Shown one piece after another: positions 18,719 to 43,950 of a DNA stretch of 64,000 nucleotides. Position numbers and translations under genes: made by a program. Location of the stretch: assembly GCF_002854065.1 (NCBI RefSeq), contig NZ_CP024147.1, one strand, 5' to 3'. Source of the stretch: Escherichia coli. Its GTDB lineage: Bacteria > Pseudomonadota > Gammaproteobacteria > Enterobacterales > Enterobacteriaceae. The stretch's first letter is position 1. Every line of letters begins with the position of its first letter. The notes under the pieces were generated by a model. The model was given only the letters and a program-made list of their open reading frames with translations. It was not told the DNA's origin and searched no databases.

Positions 18719-19176
18719 GGACGGGACTTCCGTTTCCTGCGTGATTTTTTAGAGGAGGGCATACTGATTAATAAACCGACGGCGATAAAAATAACGCCCA
18801 TAATGCCGATAAACCCCCATTTAAAAAAATTAACCCACGGGTTATTTATCTCAGCCTTTTCAGGATGCCCGGGAGAATAATAAACATTAACTTTATCACC
18901 TTCGCTGTCTTCATAAAAATCGCTGCCAATACTCGAATTGAAAATTAGCGTGTAATCTGGCGTCGGTCGAAAGGCAACGACGGGATACCACGAACCATTT
19001 TTACCCGTGCGATGAGAATGACTGGAGTGCAAGACGGTATCAACAATGACGCCTTCGGTATGAATCGCGTCTTTGCTATAGGTGAACTAGTTATAAAAGA
19101 TAACAACAGAAATGAGGATCAGTAACAGACCGATACCGAAGAATATACGAAAGAAAACTTTACTGTCCTGACTCAT
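18715..19176 (-). pseudogene. ymfA: ymfA interrupted by in-frame TAG (codon 30 of a 153-codon frame)
   Basis: Continuous frame from ATG (rc of 19174-19176; [29 protein letters not shown]) is broken by TAG (rc of plus 19087-19089) then continues [25 protein letters not shown]... to stop at 18715; total length equals the 153-aa YmfA I recall. Confidence 0.7.
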
Positions 19177-33054: not shown

Positions 33055-33503
33055 TAGAAGGAAGTCCACTTAATACGGTCTTGAGGTTTGGCAATCAGAT
33101 TGTATTTTTCCTGGGTACGAGTCGAAACCCTGTAAAGACTCATCGACAGTGAAACCCAACCAATCCACGGGACCCAACGAGCGATAATTGCAGCAAGCTT
33201 ATTAGATTTCTGCATCCTTACACCCACTGGTGTATGAACAGAAATACCAAAAGGCATGCGTGCATCTCTCATCAGTATACGCGCATACTTTGAGACAACA
33301 CTTGTTCCCAGGGTTGCCCCTTGCGGCTTCGCTCTTGTACCCAGCCAAGGTTGACCAGATAAGATTGCTGCACCTGATACCGAATCAATCCCCAATTCCT
33401 TACAGAATTCTTCAAGGAATATGACGTTGAGTAGTTCTATTTTGGACAGGTTCGGGTGTCCTCTATAGAAATATGTTCCATTGCGTTCTTCGGTAGTATC
33501 CAT
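33054..33503 (-). CDS. hypothetical 149-aa protein with C-proximal hydrophobic segment (family unassigned)
   Basis: ATG preceded by GGAG at a 9-nt spacing; hydrophobic stretch LAAIIARWVPWIGWVSLSMSLY; AGA/AGG Arg codons (atypical for E. coli core genes). Confidence 0.5.
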   Translation of the reverse strand: MDTTEERNGTYFYRGHPNLSKIELLNVIFLEEFCKELGIDSVSGAAILSGQPWLGTRAKPQGATLGTSVVSKYARILMRDARMPFGISVHTPVGVRMQKSNKLAAIIARWVPWIGWVSLSMSLYRVSTRTQEKYNLIAKPQDRIKWTSF

Positions 33504-37904: not shown

Positions 37905-38022
37905 TAAATAAGATTTCAGCTAAATTGGATGAAACATTATTTTTAATGTGGATTAAATTAAAACATAACGTATTCATTTTCACGATGATTTCCAGAAAAC
38001 TTGCAAAATAATGTGCTGAAAA

Positions 38023-39234
38023 TTATTTTTTCTCCGGCCACGCAACTGAAGGGATACCATTCAATTTAGCTTTAGCAAACAGATCCCCCTGAAACATCTC
38101 AATTCCTGCGGATTCAAGCCACATCCACTCTTCTGGTGTTGCCACGCCCATAGCACTGACTTGAATTTCAAGTGATGTACAGCATTTTATGATCGCCTGA
38201 ATAATTGCCTGCCGTGGTCCGCTTTTATGAACATTGGTAATCAATTCCTGACTGATTTTAATTCTGTCAGGCTGGAAGCGTGACAGGAGTAACAAACCAG
38301 CAAAACCTGCGCCAAAATGATCAATTGCTACACTGATACCGGCAGCCTTTAGCGATTTAACCGCTTCGGCAAACTCATCAAACCGAGATATGACTTCACT
38401 TTCAGTAAATTCAACGATGATTTGTTCAGGCACCAGACCATTGGCCTTTATTTCATCAAGTAAAAAAGAGACTGCGTCAGGCTCGTTAACCAGGGTCATA
38501 GGTAATAGATTGATAGATATCATTTTATCACCGAGCTCAAGTGCGTGTGCCATCGCGAATACAAGCGCCTTACTTTTGAGATCCGCTGTGTAGATTTCCC
38601 CGTCTTTACGCTGCCCAACCGCTATAGCTGACGGGCTGTCTTCATTTTTTTGCACAATGGCTTCAAAAGCGATTATCCGCCGCGATAAGGGATCAACAAT
38701 AGGATGAAAGGCAAAGTGGTCGTTTATATTTGGTGAAAGGGTACAGGAATCAAGTTCTTTATCAGATCTGTCAGCGATAAAAAGCCAGGAGTCTTCAGCA
38801 GGGATCTCGAAATAGGTTGATTGTTCGGTTGCAAGGACAAAAGTACGAAAAAATTGTAGCGCTCTGTCATCATAAGTTAGCTGAAATTTTGATGTGCCTT
38901 TGTCGAATACGGCCTGTAAAACGTCATCTCGCTCGTGCAGGCGTAAATCAAATAATTCCATTCCTGCTTTACCAAAACGGCGAGCAGGCGCGTAATCGCA
39001 CAACAGTTCAACAATATTATAGTGCCGAGGATCCTGGCATATAGCCCGATATATCATTTGAACCTGTTCTTCCGGACCTTCCAGAAGCTGGAAAAAATGA
39101 GAACCATTAAACAGTAAGATCCCTGTTACGTCAGACTGCATGTTCCTGCGATTTGCTATCGAAACCATTTCTTCGATTTTTTTGACAGGTTCGTCGTCAC
39201 GTATATGGCTACGATAAATAAGGGTGGTAAGCAT
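38023..39234 (-). CDS. bluF: blue-light sensor BluF (BLUF plus degenerate EAL domain; YcgF)
   Basis: 403-aa product from MLTTLIYRSHIRDD...; BLUF N-terminus and EAL-like C-terminus. Confidence 0.9.
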   Translation of the reverse strand: MLTTLIYRSHIRDDEPVKKIEEMVSIANRRNMQSDVTGILLFNGSHFFQLLEGPEEQVQMIYRAICQDPRHYNIVELLCDYAPARRFGKAGMELFDLRLHERDDVLQAVFDKGTSKFQLTYDDRALQFFRTFVLATEQSTYFEIPAEDSWLFIADRSDKELDSCTLSPNINDHFAFHPIVDPLSRRIIAFEAIVQKNEDSPSAIAVGQRKDGEIYTADLKSKALVFAMAHALELGDKMISINLLPMTLVNEPDAVSFLLDEIKANGLVPEQIIVEFTESEVISRFDEFAEAVKSLKAAGISVAIDHFGAGFAGLLLLSRFQPDRIKISQELITNVHKSGPRQAIIQAIIKCCTSLEIQVSAMGVATPEEWMWLESAGIEMFQGDLFAKAKLNGIPSVAWPEKK

Positions 39235-39547
39235 TAACTGTCCAGGGTAATGGGAGAGGCGAGAGTAAGACGGTAACAGACATATCTTCCGGTGTCTTTC
39301 TTTTAATACCAAAACATAACTGTTTCTTTACATTGATAAAAAATGGAAAAAGTTGAACACGAGTTGGCGAAAAATCTTGTATAGGTTGTCAGTTAAATGA
39401 TGCAATATGTTTTATCATAACGTATTGTTTTATATGCATTAGCACTAATTGCAAAAAATTAATTTATCATTCTGTACACATATTTCGTACAAGTTTGCTA
39501 TTGTTACCTCACTTAACATTGATTAACATTTTTAACAGAGGCGTAGC

Positions 39548-39784
39548 ATGCATCAAAATTCAGTGACTTTAGATTCTGCGGGAGCAATCACTCGTTACTT
39601 TGCAAAAGCTAACTTGCCTACTCAGCAGGAAACTCTCGGGGAAATTGTGACTGAGATTTTGAAAGATGGACGTAATCTGAGTCGAAAGTCGCTTTGTGCC
39701 AAACTTCTTTGCCGACTGGAACAAGCGACAGGGGAAGAGGAACAGAAACATTATAATGCACTAATTGGGTTGCTTTTTGAATAA
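39548..39784 (+). CDS. ycgZ: small protein YcgZ (connector of two-component signalling)
   Basis: 78-aa ORF with good RBS, divergent from bluF. Confidence 0.85.
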   Translation: MHQNSVTLDSAGAITRYFAKANLPTQQETLGEIVTEILKDGRNLSRKSLCAKLLCRLEQATGEEEQKHYNALIGLLFE

Positions 39785-39813
39785 TGCAACAGCCTGATTA
39801 TTTGGATTTGCCC

Positions 39814-40719
39814 CTATATTTCCAGACATCTGTTATCACTTAACCCATTACAAGCCCGCTGCCGCAGATATTCCCGTGGCGAGCGATAACCCAGCGCACT
39901 ATGCGGATGCCATTCGTTATAATGCTCGAACGCCTCTGCAAGGTTCTTTGCTGCCGTTAACCCGTCTGGTTTGGGCATGATACTGATGTAGTCACGCTTT
40001 ATCGTTTTCACGAAGCTCTCTGCTATTCCGTTACTCTCCGGACTCCGCACCGCCGTGTTCTTCGGTTCAAGTCCCAACATCCGGGCGAACTGGCGTGTTT
40101 CATTAGCCCGGTAGCATGAACCATTATCCGTCAGCCACTCCACTGGAGACGACGGAAGATCGTTGCCGAAGCGGCGTTCCACCGCTCCCAGCATGACGTC
40201 CTGTACTGTTTCACTGTTGAAGCCGCCGGTAGTGACCGCCCAGTGCAGTGCCTCACGATCACAGCAGTCCAGCGCGAACGTGACACGCAGTCTCTCTCCG
40301 TTATCACAGCAGAACTCGAACCCGTCAGAGCACCATCGCTGATTGCTTTCTTTCACGGCCACTCTGCCTGTATGTGCCCGTTTCGATGGCGGTACAGCAG
40401 GTTTTCGCTCAAGCAACAGCGCATTCTAGCGCATGATCCGGTAAACACGTTTGGCATTGATCGCAGGCATACCATCAAGTTCTGCCTGTCTGCGAAGCAG
40501 CGCCCATACCCGACGATAACCATACGTGGGCAGCTCTCCGATAACATGGTGTATACGGAGAAGCACATCCGTATCATCAGTGTGACGACTGCGGCGGCCA
40601 TCCATCCAGTCATCGGTTCGTCTGAGAATGACGTGCAACTGCGCACGCGACACCCGGAGACAACGGCTGACTAAGCTTACTCCCCATCCCCGGGCAATAA
40701 GGGCGCGTGCGCTATCCAC
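39814..40719 (-). pseudogene. insD: IS2 transposase OrfB (InsD) interrupted by in-frame TAG at codon 98
   Basis: Frame [12 protein letters not shown]...AKRVYRIMR / TAG (rc of plus 40426-40428) / [20 protein letters not shown]...; canonical IS2 has Gln at this position as I recall. Confidence 0.75.
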
Positions 40720-41042
40720 TTTTTTGCCCGTCCATATTCAACGGCTTCTTTGAGGAGTTCATTTTCCATCGTTTTCTTGCCGAGCAGGCGCTGGAGTTCT
40801 TTAATCTGCTTCATGGCGGCAGCAAGTTCAGAGGCAGGAACAACCTGTTCTCCGGCGGCGACAGCAGTAAGACTTCCTTCCTGGTATTGCTTACGCCAGA
40901 GAAATAACTGGCTGGCTGCTACACCATGTTGCCGGGCAACGAGGGAGACCGTCATCCCCGGTTCAAAGCTCTGCTGAACAATTGCGATCTTTTCCTGTGT
41001 GGTACGCCGTCTGCGTTTCTCCGGCCCTAAGACATCAATCAT
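40677..41042 (-). CDS. insC: IS2 transposase OrfA (InsC)
   Basis: 121-aa product [34 protein letters not shown]... Confidence 0.9.
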
Positions 41043-41162
41043 CTGTTCTCCAATGACTAGTCTAAAAACTAGTATTAAGACTATCACTTATTTAAGTGAT
41101 ATTGGTTGTCTGGAGATTCAGGGGGCCAGTCTATTATTTAACAGGTTAGCTATGAAGTCGTT

Positions 41163-41435
41163 ATGAAGACATCTGATAATGAAAGTATAAAATATGAAAT
41201 TACTGGCCAGGCGGTGCTCCAGATACTGCGCATGAAGATAAATTTTTCGGTGCAGACTCTTATTAAGCAATTACTCGTAATGAAATCGGCTGAGGAAAAT
41301 GCTTTCCGACGAGATTTAATTGACAGCATAATTCGTGATTTTAGCAACAGTGATACAGGAGGGCCAAACCGAAGAACAGCGATAGCTGACAATAAAAGTA
41401 TGTTCAATGGTAAGAAAATAAACAGAATACATTAA
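41163..41435 (+). CDS. ymgA: small protein YmgA (connector/biofilm-related)
   Basis: 90-aa ORF, first gene after the IS2. Confidence 0.82.
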   Translation: MKTSDNESIKYEITGQAVLQILRMKINFSVQTLIKQLLVMKSAEENAFRRDLIDSIIRDFSNSDTGGPNRRTAIADNKSMFNGKKINRIH

Positions 41436-41463
41436 AATTTCATAAGTAAGATGAGAGGTTACC

Positions 41464-41730
41464 ATGCTTGAAGATACTACAATTCATAATGCAATAACTG
41501 ATAAAGCGTTATCAAGTTACTTTCGCAGTTCGGGTAATTTGTTAGAAGAAGAGTCAGCAGTGTTAGGGCAGGCTGTGACTAATTTAATGCTTTCAGGCGA
41601 TAATGTTAATAATAAAAATATTATCTTAAGTCTGATACACTCCCTGGAAACAACAAGTGATATTCTCAAAGCTGACGTGATCAGAAAAACACTGGAAATC
41701 GTGTTGCGATACACAGCGGATGACATGTAA
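41464..41730 (+). CDS. ariR: AriR (YmgB), regulator of acid resistance/biofilm
   Basis: 88-aa ORF with GAGAGG RBS. Confidence 0.85.
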
Positions 41731-41842
41731 CTTTTAATTATTAAGTATAAGTTTATAGAAAACTCATTCATCTTATTTTTGTCTGTCGCTTTAGACTATA
41801 CACAGCATAATTTTATTGGGTTAATATTTCTACGAGGCTGAC

Positions 41843-42091
41843 ATGAATAATTCAATCCCAGAGAGATTTATTTTTCAATGTGCTTTGTTTAAAAATCTCG
41901 AGAGGGAGGTATTCATGACGCATGGGTATGTTGATAGTCATATTATTGATCAGGCTTTACGCTTGCGTTTAAAAGATGAAACCAGTGTGATTCTTTCTGA
42001 TCTCTATCTGCAAATCTTGCAGTACATTGAAATGCATAAGACTACACTAACGGATATCATTATTAATGACAGGGAATCCGTGCTCTCTTAG
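41843..42091 (+). CDS. ymgC: small protein YmgC
   Basis: 82-aa ORF, TAG stop. Confidence 0.78.
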   Translation: MNNSIPERFIFQCALFKNLEREVFMTHGYVDSHIIDQALRLRLKDETSVILSDLYLQILQYIEMHKTTLTDIIINDRESVLS

Positions 42092-42426
42092 AACTTGAGT
42101 AAGGTTATAGAATAAACATCAGCTGTATCATCATGCTGGTGCAAAGTGAGCATTTCAGGCGTTATGCTTTCTTAATATATCCGCAATATCAGGGGGCAAA
42201 CAGGAATGGAGAGCGCTCGTTTTCCATTCTTGACGCCTGATATCCCACCTAATTTGTTTAATTCTGCCTACATTGTGCTCAATAATTAATAGGTTAGATG
42301 AAGATGGAGAAAATTTTATCTTCGGCGTGGATATTTCTTATGCTCTCTACCATGCTCTCTGTAGACGCCAGCGCGAGCGAATGAACGTCATTTTCATGTA
42401 TTAAACCCTTTGTTCGGGACAAGCGA

Positions 42427-43950
42427 ATGCGCAATACACTCATACCCATCCTCGTTGCGATATGCTTGTTTATAACCGGTGTCGCTATTTTGAACATCCA
42501 GCTCTGGTATTCCGCAAAAGCAGAGTACCTGGCGGGAGCAAGATATGCCGCCAACAATATCAATCATATACTTGAAGAAGCGTCACAGGCGACTCAAACA
42601 GCGGTTAACATTGCCGGGAAGGAATGCGACCTCGAGGAGCAATATCAGCTTGGCACTGAAGCAGCTCTGAAACCTCACCTGCGCACAATCATCATTCTCA
42701 AACAGGGTACGGTCTGGTGTACATCCTTACCGGGGAATCGGGTCCTGCTGTCTCGTATTCCTGTTTTCCCGGACAGTAATTTACTGTTGGCTCCGGCAAT
42801 CGACACCGTTAATCGATTACCTATCCTGCTCTATCAGAGCCAATTTGCAGATACGCGCATTTTGGTTACGATAAGTGATCAGCATATTCGCGGGGCGCTT
42901 AATGTACCCTTGAAAGGGGTAAGGTATGTATTACGCGTGGCGGATGACATTATTGGACCTACGGGTGATGTGATAACGCTTAATGGACATTATCCCTATA
43001 CCGAGAAGGTTCACTCCACAAAATATCATTTCACTATTATCTTTAACTCGCCGCCACTCTTTAGCTTCTACAGACTTATCGATAAAGGCTTTGGGATTTT
43101 GATCTTTATTCTGTTAATCGCCTGCGCCGCTGCCTTCCTGCTAGATAGGTATTTCAATAAAAGCGCAACGCCTGAAGAGATCCTGCGGCGGGCTATAAAT
43201 AATGGGGAGATCGTCCCTTTTTACCAACCAGTGGTGAATGGTCGGGAAGGGACATTGCGGGGAGTTGAGGTGTTAGCCCGCTGGAAACAACCTCACGGTG
43301 GATATATTTCACCCGCGGCATTTATTCCACTTGCTGAAAAATCCGGATTAATCGTTCCGCTTACGCAAAGCCTGATGAATCAGGTTGCCAGACAGATGAA
43401 CGCTATCGCGAGTAAATTGCCGGAAGGTTTTCATATTGGAATTAATTTTAGCGCCTCGCATATTATTTCGCCGACGTTTGTCGACGAGTGCTTAAATTAC
43501 CGTGACAGTTTTACCCGCCGCGATTTAAACCTCGTTCTGGAAGTTACCGAGCGTGAGCCATTAAATGTTGATGAAAGTCTGGTTCAGCGGTTGAACATTC
43601 TGCATGAAAATGGTTTTGTCATCGCGCTGGATGATTTCGGTACTGGCTACTCAGGGCTTTCTTTTCTGCATGACCTGCATATTGATTATATCAAAATTGA
43701 TCACAGTTTCGTTGGCCGCGTAAACGCAGACCCAGAATCAACTCGGATTCTGGATTGTGTATTGGATCTGGCGCGTAAACTTTCGATCAGTATCGTCGCT
43801 GAAGGTGTCGAAACCAAAGAACAACTTGACTATCTGAACCAAAATAATATCACATTTCAGCAGGGTTATTATTTCTATAAACCTGTTACATACATCGACC
43901 TGGTCAAAATTATCCTTTCTAAACCGAAGGTGAAGGTTGTGGTTGAGTGA
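42427..43950 (+). CDS. pdeG: c-di-GMP phosphodiesterase-family protein PdeG (YcgG), CSS-motif plus EAL domain
   Basis: 507-aa product with N-terminal TM, periplasmic domain, second TM and C-terminal EAL domain. Confidence 0.87.
   Translation: MRNTLIPILVAICLFITGVAILNIQLWYSAKAEYLAGARYAANNINHILEEASQATQTAVNIAGKECDLEEQYQLGTEAALKPHLRTIIILKQGTVWCTSLPGNRVLLSRIPVFPDSNLLLAPAIDTVNRLPILLYQSQFADTRILVTISDQHIRGALNVPLKGVRYVLRVADDIIGPTGDVITLNGHYPYTEKVHSTKYHFTIIFNSPPLFSFYRLIDKGFGILIFILLIACAAAFLLDRYFNKSATPEEILRRAINNGEIVPFYQPVVNGREGTLRGVEVLARWKQPHGGYISPAAFIPLAEKSGLIVPLTQSLMNQVARQMNAIASKLPEGFHIGINFSASHIISPTFVDECLNYRDSFTRRDLNLVLEVTEREPLNVDESLVQRLNILHENGFVIALDDFGTGYSGLSFLHDLHIDYIKIDHSFVGRVNADPESTRILDCVLDLARKLSISIVAEGVETKEQLDYLNQNNITFQQGYYFYKPVTYIDLVKIILSKPKVKVVVE

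Follow-up and report, generated by a model that had tools for sequence, protein, structure and literature searches.

The IS2 element between ycgZ and ymgA

The 64-kb stretch of Escherichia coli DNA that was analysed (the window) contains a complete IS2 element of 1331 bp between ycgZ and ymgA, with its transposase encoded on the minus strand. The element is located 18 bp past the ycgZ stop codon and 29 bp ahead of the ymgA start codon (39785–41162), in such a way that it lies antisense to the ycgZ-ymgA-ariR-ymgC cluster. The positions of its components are listed in Table 1. The features that define IS2 were found: a near-identical element of around 1331 bp, intact inverted repeats (IRL and IRR), a 5-bp target duplication, and overlapping orfA and orfB reading frames with an A6G window for -1 frameshifting. 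Counted from IRL to IRR, the start of orfA corresponds to IS2 position 92 and the AAAAAAG site to position 409, in the register A AAA AAG. By contrast, an open OrfAB frame encoding the DDE (rve) core was not found, since a TAG occupies codon 206 of the fusion. Judged from its sequence, the element is IS2 by descent, but a defective copy.

Table 1. Positions of the IS2 element and its components in the window
Feature	Position	Strand	Description
IS2 element (1331 bp)	39803..41133	-	IRL at the high-coordinate end, IRR at the low; aligned over its full length to K-12 IS2 (2 mismatches) and CUWW06 IS2 (1 mismatch)
Target-site duplication TTATT, left copy	39798..39802	.	Read from the sequence
Target-site duplication TTATT, right copy	41134..41138	.	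Read from the sequence
orfA (insC), 121 aa, intact	40677..41042	-	Translation; HTH DNA-binding domain and leucine-zipper-like motif; Pfam HTH_Tnp_1 at residues 8-87
A6G (AAAAAAG) programmed -1 frameshift site, intact	40719..40725	-	Located in the sequence; role according to PMC3219604
InsD codons 1-97 (OrfAB residues 109-205), still translatable	40429..40719	-	"Middle interval" with HTH_21 region; Pfam HTH_21 at fusion residues 172-212
Amber TAG (canonical CAG; Gln206 of OrfAB, Gln98 of InsD)	40426..40428	-	Mutated base 40428: plus-strand A, canonical G
Rest of the insD frame, cut off from translation	39814..40425	-	Linker and whole DDE catalytic core; Pfam rve 232-335, rve_3 324-389
D240 codon	40324-40326	-	DDE residue
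D306 codon	40126-40128	-	DDE residue
E342 codon	40018-40020	-	DDE residue
insD natural stop	39814-39816	-	Codon read from the sequence

The element was compared with other IS2 copies. In the alignment with a copy from K-12 MG1655, 1329 of the 1331 bases were identical; both inverted repeats coincided and the differences were confined to bases 40428 (A in the window, G in K-12) and 40528, which correspond to IS2 positions 706 and 606, respectively. The IS2 copy that strain CUWW06 carries at another locus was even closer (1330 of 1331), the amber base being the sole difference (C to T, changing CAG to TAG). The second base that differs from K-12, 40528, is common to CUWW06 and other copies, and it is silent, as RefSeq lists copies with one base or the other under a single protein, WP_088895425.1; it was consequently rejected as a second lesion. 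Thus, the window copy and the canonical K-12 element (IS3 family, IS2 group; InsC/InsD, OrfAB WP_088895425.1) are alike in length, inverted repeats, 5-bp duplication, orfA, A6G site and DDE codons, but the window copy has an amber codon in place of Gln206 (CAG), so that neither full-length OrfAB nor full-length InsD is encoded.

The amber codon and the transposase

An initial annotation of this DNA had described an in-frame TAG at 40426-40428 interrupting insD, and this description was exact: the plus strand reads CTA at these positions, which is TAG on the minus strand in frame with InsD, and the list of open reading frames presents the InsD frame in two pieces, one of 97 aa (40426..40719, ending in ...AKRVYRIMR) and one of 200 aa (39814..40416, starting from ...LERKPAVPP). 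The Gln (CAG) that it gave for the canonical IS2 is indeed encoded by the MG1655 copy, with its G at 40428. It had further presented the element as complete except for a single nonsense substitution that leaves the copy defective in transposase, and this agrees with the 1331 bp found, the TTATT on both sides and the CAG-to-TAG change. Regarding the site of truncation, the stop is codon 98 of InsD when counted from the InsD GTG, and codon 206 of the 409-aa OrfAB that we reconstructed as the -1 fusion; the truncation near residue 98 proposed in that annotation is therefore right for InsD (OrfB), but not for the OrfAB fusion, which is cut at 205/206.

According to the published map of IS2 OrfAB, an H+HTH binding domain at the N-terminus is followed by a leucine-zipper-like motif at residues 73-100 and then by a middle interval; the catalytic site spans 236-398, with D240, D306 and E342 as its catalytic residues, and the stretch before it, 207-235, is probably disordered (PMC3219604). 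The numbering of these three residues in the reconstructed OrfAB agrees exactly with the published one (PMC3219604), and all of them, together with the rve and rve_3 domains (232-389), are encoded downstream of the stop. The entire catalytic core is therefore lost, everything upstream of it is kept, and, since all three catalytic residues are beyond the stop, no active transposase can be produced from this IS2. We infer from this arrangement that the window copy would have lost its activity.

The insertion site in close relatives

The best match to the flanks of the window was E. coli CUWW06, a wastewater isolate from Thailand, from which the window differs over 62.7 kb by around 18 substitutions and a single indel. 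In this strain the ycgZ/ymgA site is empty and its IS2 is located elsewhere; TTATT is present there as a single copy, in which the matches to both flanks overlap by 5 bp (2061621-2061625). The site was also empty in the seven places listed among 23 contigs with the PdeG allele of the window, which were 99.93-99.98% identical to it. No IS2 at this exact ycgZ/ymgA point was found in the complete genomes searched, and exact look-up of the 97-aa, 200-aa, YmgA, 180-aa rve fragment or PdeG allele sequences did not retrieve any contig with IS2 between ycgZ and ymgA. As the site is empty in every close relative examined, the IS2 insertion is private to the source strain. Given its position, the element probably separates ymgA-ariR-ymgC from the promoter that lies upstream of ycgZ.

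Given the overall divergence between the window and CUWW06, a 1.3-kb segment is expected to contain around 0.4 substitutions, and one SNP between the IS2 copies of the two is therefore unremarkable. The share of orfAB substitutions that create a stop is about 3-4%.

The surroundings of the insertion were also analysed. The bluF-ycgZ-ymgA-ariR-ymgC-pdeG segment (38000-42500) is a region of roughly 3 kb that gathers IS2 or IS2-like insertions in many E. coli genomes. At least nine insertion points were found in the same orientation as in the window, including bluF, the 5' and 3' parts of ymgA, two at ariR/ymgC, two inside ymgC and one at ymgC/pdeG, and at least 30 further records have an IS2 or IS2-like element of opposite orientation in the bluF-pdeG region, none of them at the exact site of the window. 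An orientation bias of IS2 around ycgZ-ymgC was considered and rejected, because the search joins same-strand pieces only, and when the IS2 of the query was flipped, insertions in the opposite direction proved to be at least as numerous.

The content of insertion sequences was compared between the window and CUWW06 at about 18441, 33061-33065, 35443, 38301 and 45198. CUWW06 carries four or five IS1 elements (TPM-domain gene, after icd, bluF and ycgH) and an IS2 between a DUF1493 gene and an STM2901-family gene, all absent from the window. The turnover of IS content has been rapid, given that the two strains are only about 3e-4 apart.

Distribution of the amber allele

The TAG allele is rare. 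A 61-mer centred on the TAG was searched against 5,426 complete E. coli genomes, and no 100% match was detected among 5,679 E. coli records with 17,370 IS2 places, all of which carry a one-base difference. Neither was the allele found in 2,641 matching plasmid records of PLSDB (Escherichia, Klebsiella, Salmonella, Shigella), and exact 40-mer scans gave nothing in one-genome-per-species contigs or in JGI metagenome contigs. Whether other IS2 copies are also stopped at this codon had been put forward as a check in the initial annotation, and none of the other copies in the complete E. coli genomes or in the PLSDB plasmids has a stop there, so that this check did not refute the reading.

Exact look-up of the 97-aa product returned 11 contigs, in line with the 4 to 14 obtained for other lengths of InsD fragments, so that enrichment at this codon is not apparent. 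Among the ten matches listed, six were contigs that end at that residue, a selection effect of requiring the exact length, and four had a true internal TAG. A match of the 200-aa fragment in Shigella sonnei 4822-66 corresponded to the start of a contig and not to a true stop.

IS2 copies that are broken in one way or another are common. An interrupted orfB leads gene callers to report a 180-aa rve fragment, for which the collection has 1,252 indexed blocks. In the ten of these places that were examined, the lesions were deletions of 4 bp, an insertion of 2 bp, truncations at the 5' end or another stop, and all ten broken copies had C at IS2 position 706. In another IS2 copy the stop comes after InsD residue 104. 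The decayed IS2 elements of E. coli and Shigella, among them the 5'-truncated copy by ydfE in a prophage, the 4-bp-deleted copies and the 104-aa InsD fragment of Shigella boydii CDC 3083-94, thus resemble the window copy in that an interrupted orfB gives rise to a separate 180-aa rve fragment, but their lesions are of other kinds, being deletions, insertions and truncations or a stop in a different codon. The window copy is one more member of a known and numerous class, that of decayed IS copies; among complete genomes its particular allele is new, but trivial.

An IS2 of ColV-type plasmids with the same change

The Logan assemblies of SRR23869753, ERR14043660, ERR14043336 and SRR13870950 have a true TAG at the same codon, produced by the same C-to-T change, in an IS2 located between iss and a cobW-family gene of ColV-type plasmids. 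Apart from its plasmid locus, this copy differs from that of the window in around 20 bases (98.5% identity), which concentrate in the 3' half, all but one being downstream of position 777; its 5' segment of 776 nt, which includes T706, is equal to the window copy except for position 13. A complete reference ColV plasmid carries the same IS2 insertion, there with C706 and split by IS3. T706 has thus either had more than one origin or been transferred from copy to copy by gene conversion. As the ColV assemblies derive from independent reads, T706-type alleles are real in nature.

The IS2 at the iss-cobW site is mosaic between plasmids, with different SNP blocks in the same insertion and with or without IS3. 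Such mosaicism suggests that gene conversion takes place between IS2 copies.

Origin of the amber codon

The explanation that we favour, and consider very probable, is that a canonical IS2 would have entered the ycgZ-ymgA interval on the branch of the source strain, and that the copy acquired a CAG-to-TAG transition at OrfAB codon 206 that would make it non-autonomous. The C-to-T transition would be placed at the time of insertion or shortly before; as regards the donor, we infer a mutation after insertion rather than one already present in the donor copy. The terminal branch amounts to around 1e-4 substitutions per site to the nearest relatives, so the a priori chance of a nonsense mutation in a particular new insertion of 1.3 kb is of the order of 0.5%, a post hoc figure, as the site was chosen for being odd. 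A Dcm deamination hot spot was rejected as the source of the transition, the canonical context GCGCCAGAAT not being CCWGG.

A sequencing or assembly error was weighed against this, in which case the true base would give CAG and the IS2 copy would be intact. In favour of an error, the allele is unique to the window sequence among complete genomes, and IS2-type repeats are places where polishing with multi-mapped reads can fail. However, C was present at the site in all other IS2 copies seen, in such a way that mis-polishing from sibling copies would restore the C instead of making a T, and the site is outside the Dcm (CCWGG) motif, with GCGCCAGAAT as its canonical context. Moreover, the flanks are without sign of poor assembly, with the few differences from CUWW06 given above, and the substitution rate of the branch (around 1e-4) is above the error rates typical of finished assemblies. 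The presence of the same T allele in independent read-set assemblies, from several sequencing runs, also argues for a real base, and we regard an error as unlikely.

The TAG could also be older than the insertion and mark a non-autonomous or selected IS2 sub-lineage, whose defective donor was moved in trans and whose 205-aa N-terminal product, ending just ahead of the catalytic core, may inhibit IS2 transposition. The presence of T706 at the unrelated iss-cobW locus, within a 776-nt segment that matches the window, fits shared descent by gene conversion; in addition, the stop at residue 206 falls directly before the probably disordered interval 207-235, and trans mobilisation does happen, as deduced from the background transposition of a null mutant (PMC3219604). 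Against such an origin, the absence of the allele from the 17,370 IS2 places of complete genomes and from all matching PLSDB records implies that it has not spread, the ColV copy is at an old shared insertion site and so did not gain its T by transposition, and the number of 97-aa fragments is not enriched with respect to other lengths. A further argument is that IS3-family transposases prefer to act in cis, a preference established from IS911. An older origin of the TAG is thus very unlikely, and it is highly improbable that T706 represents a small IS2 sub-lineage spreading by trans-mobilisation or gene conversion, with the 205-aa product as a trans-dominant damper of IS2 transposition.

The ymfA amber codon and the suppressor question

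The window has another amber codon, in ymfA, which encodes a DUF3592 protein. This TAG, mentioned in the initial annotation, is real: it is codon 30, at 19087-19089 on the minus strand, and other strains have CAG. Among 3,200 complete genomes with a match, it was common to CUWW06 alone, in which RefSeq annotates ymfA as a pseudogene with an internal stop. Its presence in CUWW06 means that the ymfA TAG arose before the two strains separated; as the IS2 TAG is private, the two are independent events of different age.

That annotation had also raised, with caution, an amber-suppressor background. In such a strain supE or supF would read through the TAG and both IS2 and ymfA would be functional. 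Two CAG-to-TAG interruptions within one 64-kb window could be read in this way, as in each of them glnV(CUA) would restore precisely the Gln of the canonical sequence. The different age of the two ambers speaks against it, the ymfA one predating the split from CUWW06, a separately sequenced environmental isolate, and so does the glnX-glnV locus of CUWW06, where glnV and glnX are wild type with CTG anticodons, the locus having CTG/TTG tRNA-Gln genes only and no supE allele; within the window there is no tRNA gene. The window has 49 long ORFs, and a count of every single-base route to a stop within them gave TAG a share of 38%, rising to 55% for the transition routes, among which it is the commonest stop; two TAGs out of two stops are thus expected by chance with a p of 0.14 to 0.30. 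TAG terminates only one of these 49 ORFs, which likewise gives no support to suppression; rare natural TAG stops are the normal E. coli usage. A suppressor background therefore deserves scarcely any credence, and coincidence, for which the initial annotation had left room, is the better reading of the two ambers, on strong but indirect evidence. They should not be taken as a sign of a suppressor genotype.

Consequences for the element and the strain

Returning to the favoured reading, a canonical IS2 inserted on the branch to the source strain and carrying the transition, OrfA (InsC) would still be made from the window copy, and the rare -1 frameshift would give a 205-aa stump of OrfAB that retains the domains for DNA binding and oligomerisation as well as the middle domain, but lacks the DDE core. 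This truncated protein would presumably be produced, and it probably binds IS ends and oligomerises, without DNA cutting or joining. Truncated IS3-family transposases and OrfA are expected to bind IS ends without catalysis. The experimental truncation OrfAB[1-149] of IS911 and the natural regulator OrfA share with the stump the presence of DNA-binding and oligomerisation domains and the lack of a catalytic core, but the truncation in the window is a spontaneous chromosomal allele, and any regulatory effect of it is putative.

The window IS2 would be non-autonomous, unable to move itself. As both of its ends are intact, another IS2 could mobilise it in trans, or gene conversion could repair it. 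The background transposition of an IS2 null mutant has been ascribed to chromosomal IS2 copies (PMC3219604), and this supports trans mobilisation in principle. Decay of IS2 by a stop codon is an ordinary, strain-private route.

The window copy should be annotated as an IS2 pseudogene that contains an internal stop, and any assessment of the IS activity of the strain should treat it as non-autonomous. Beyond annotation its significance is little. The insertion splits the ycgZ-ymgA-ariR-ymgC cluster, and this may matter more for the phenotype of the strain than the stop codon.
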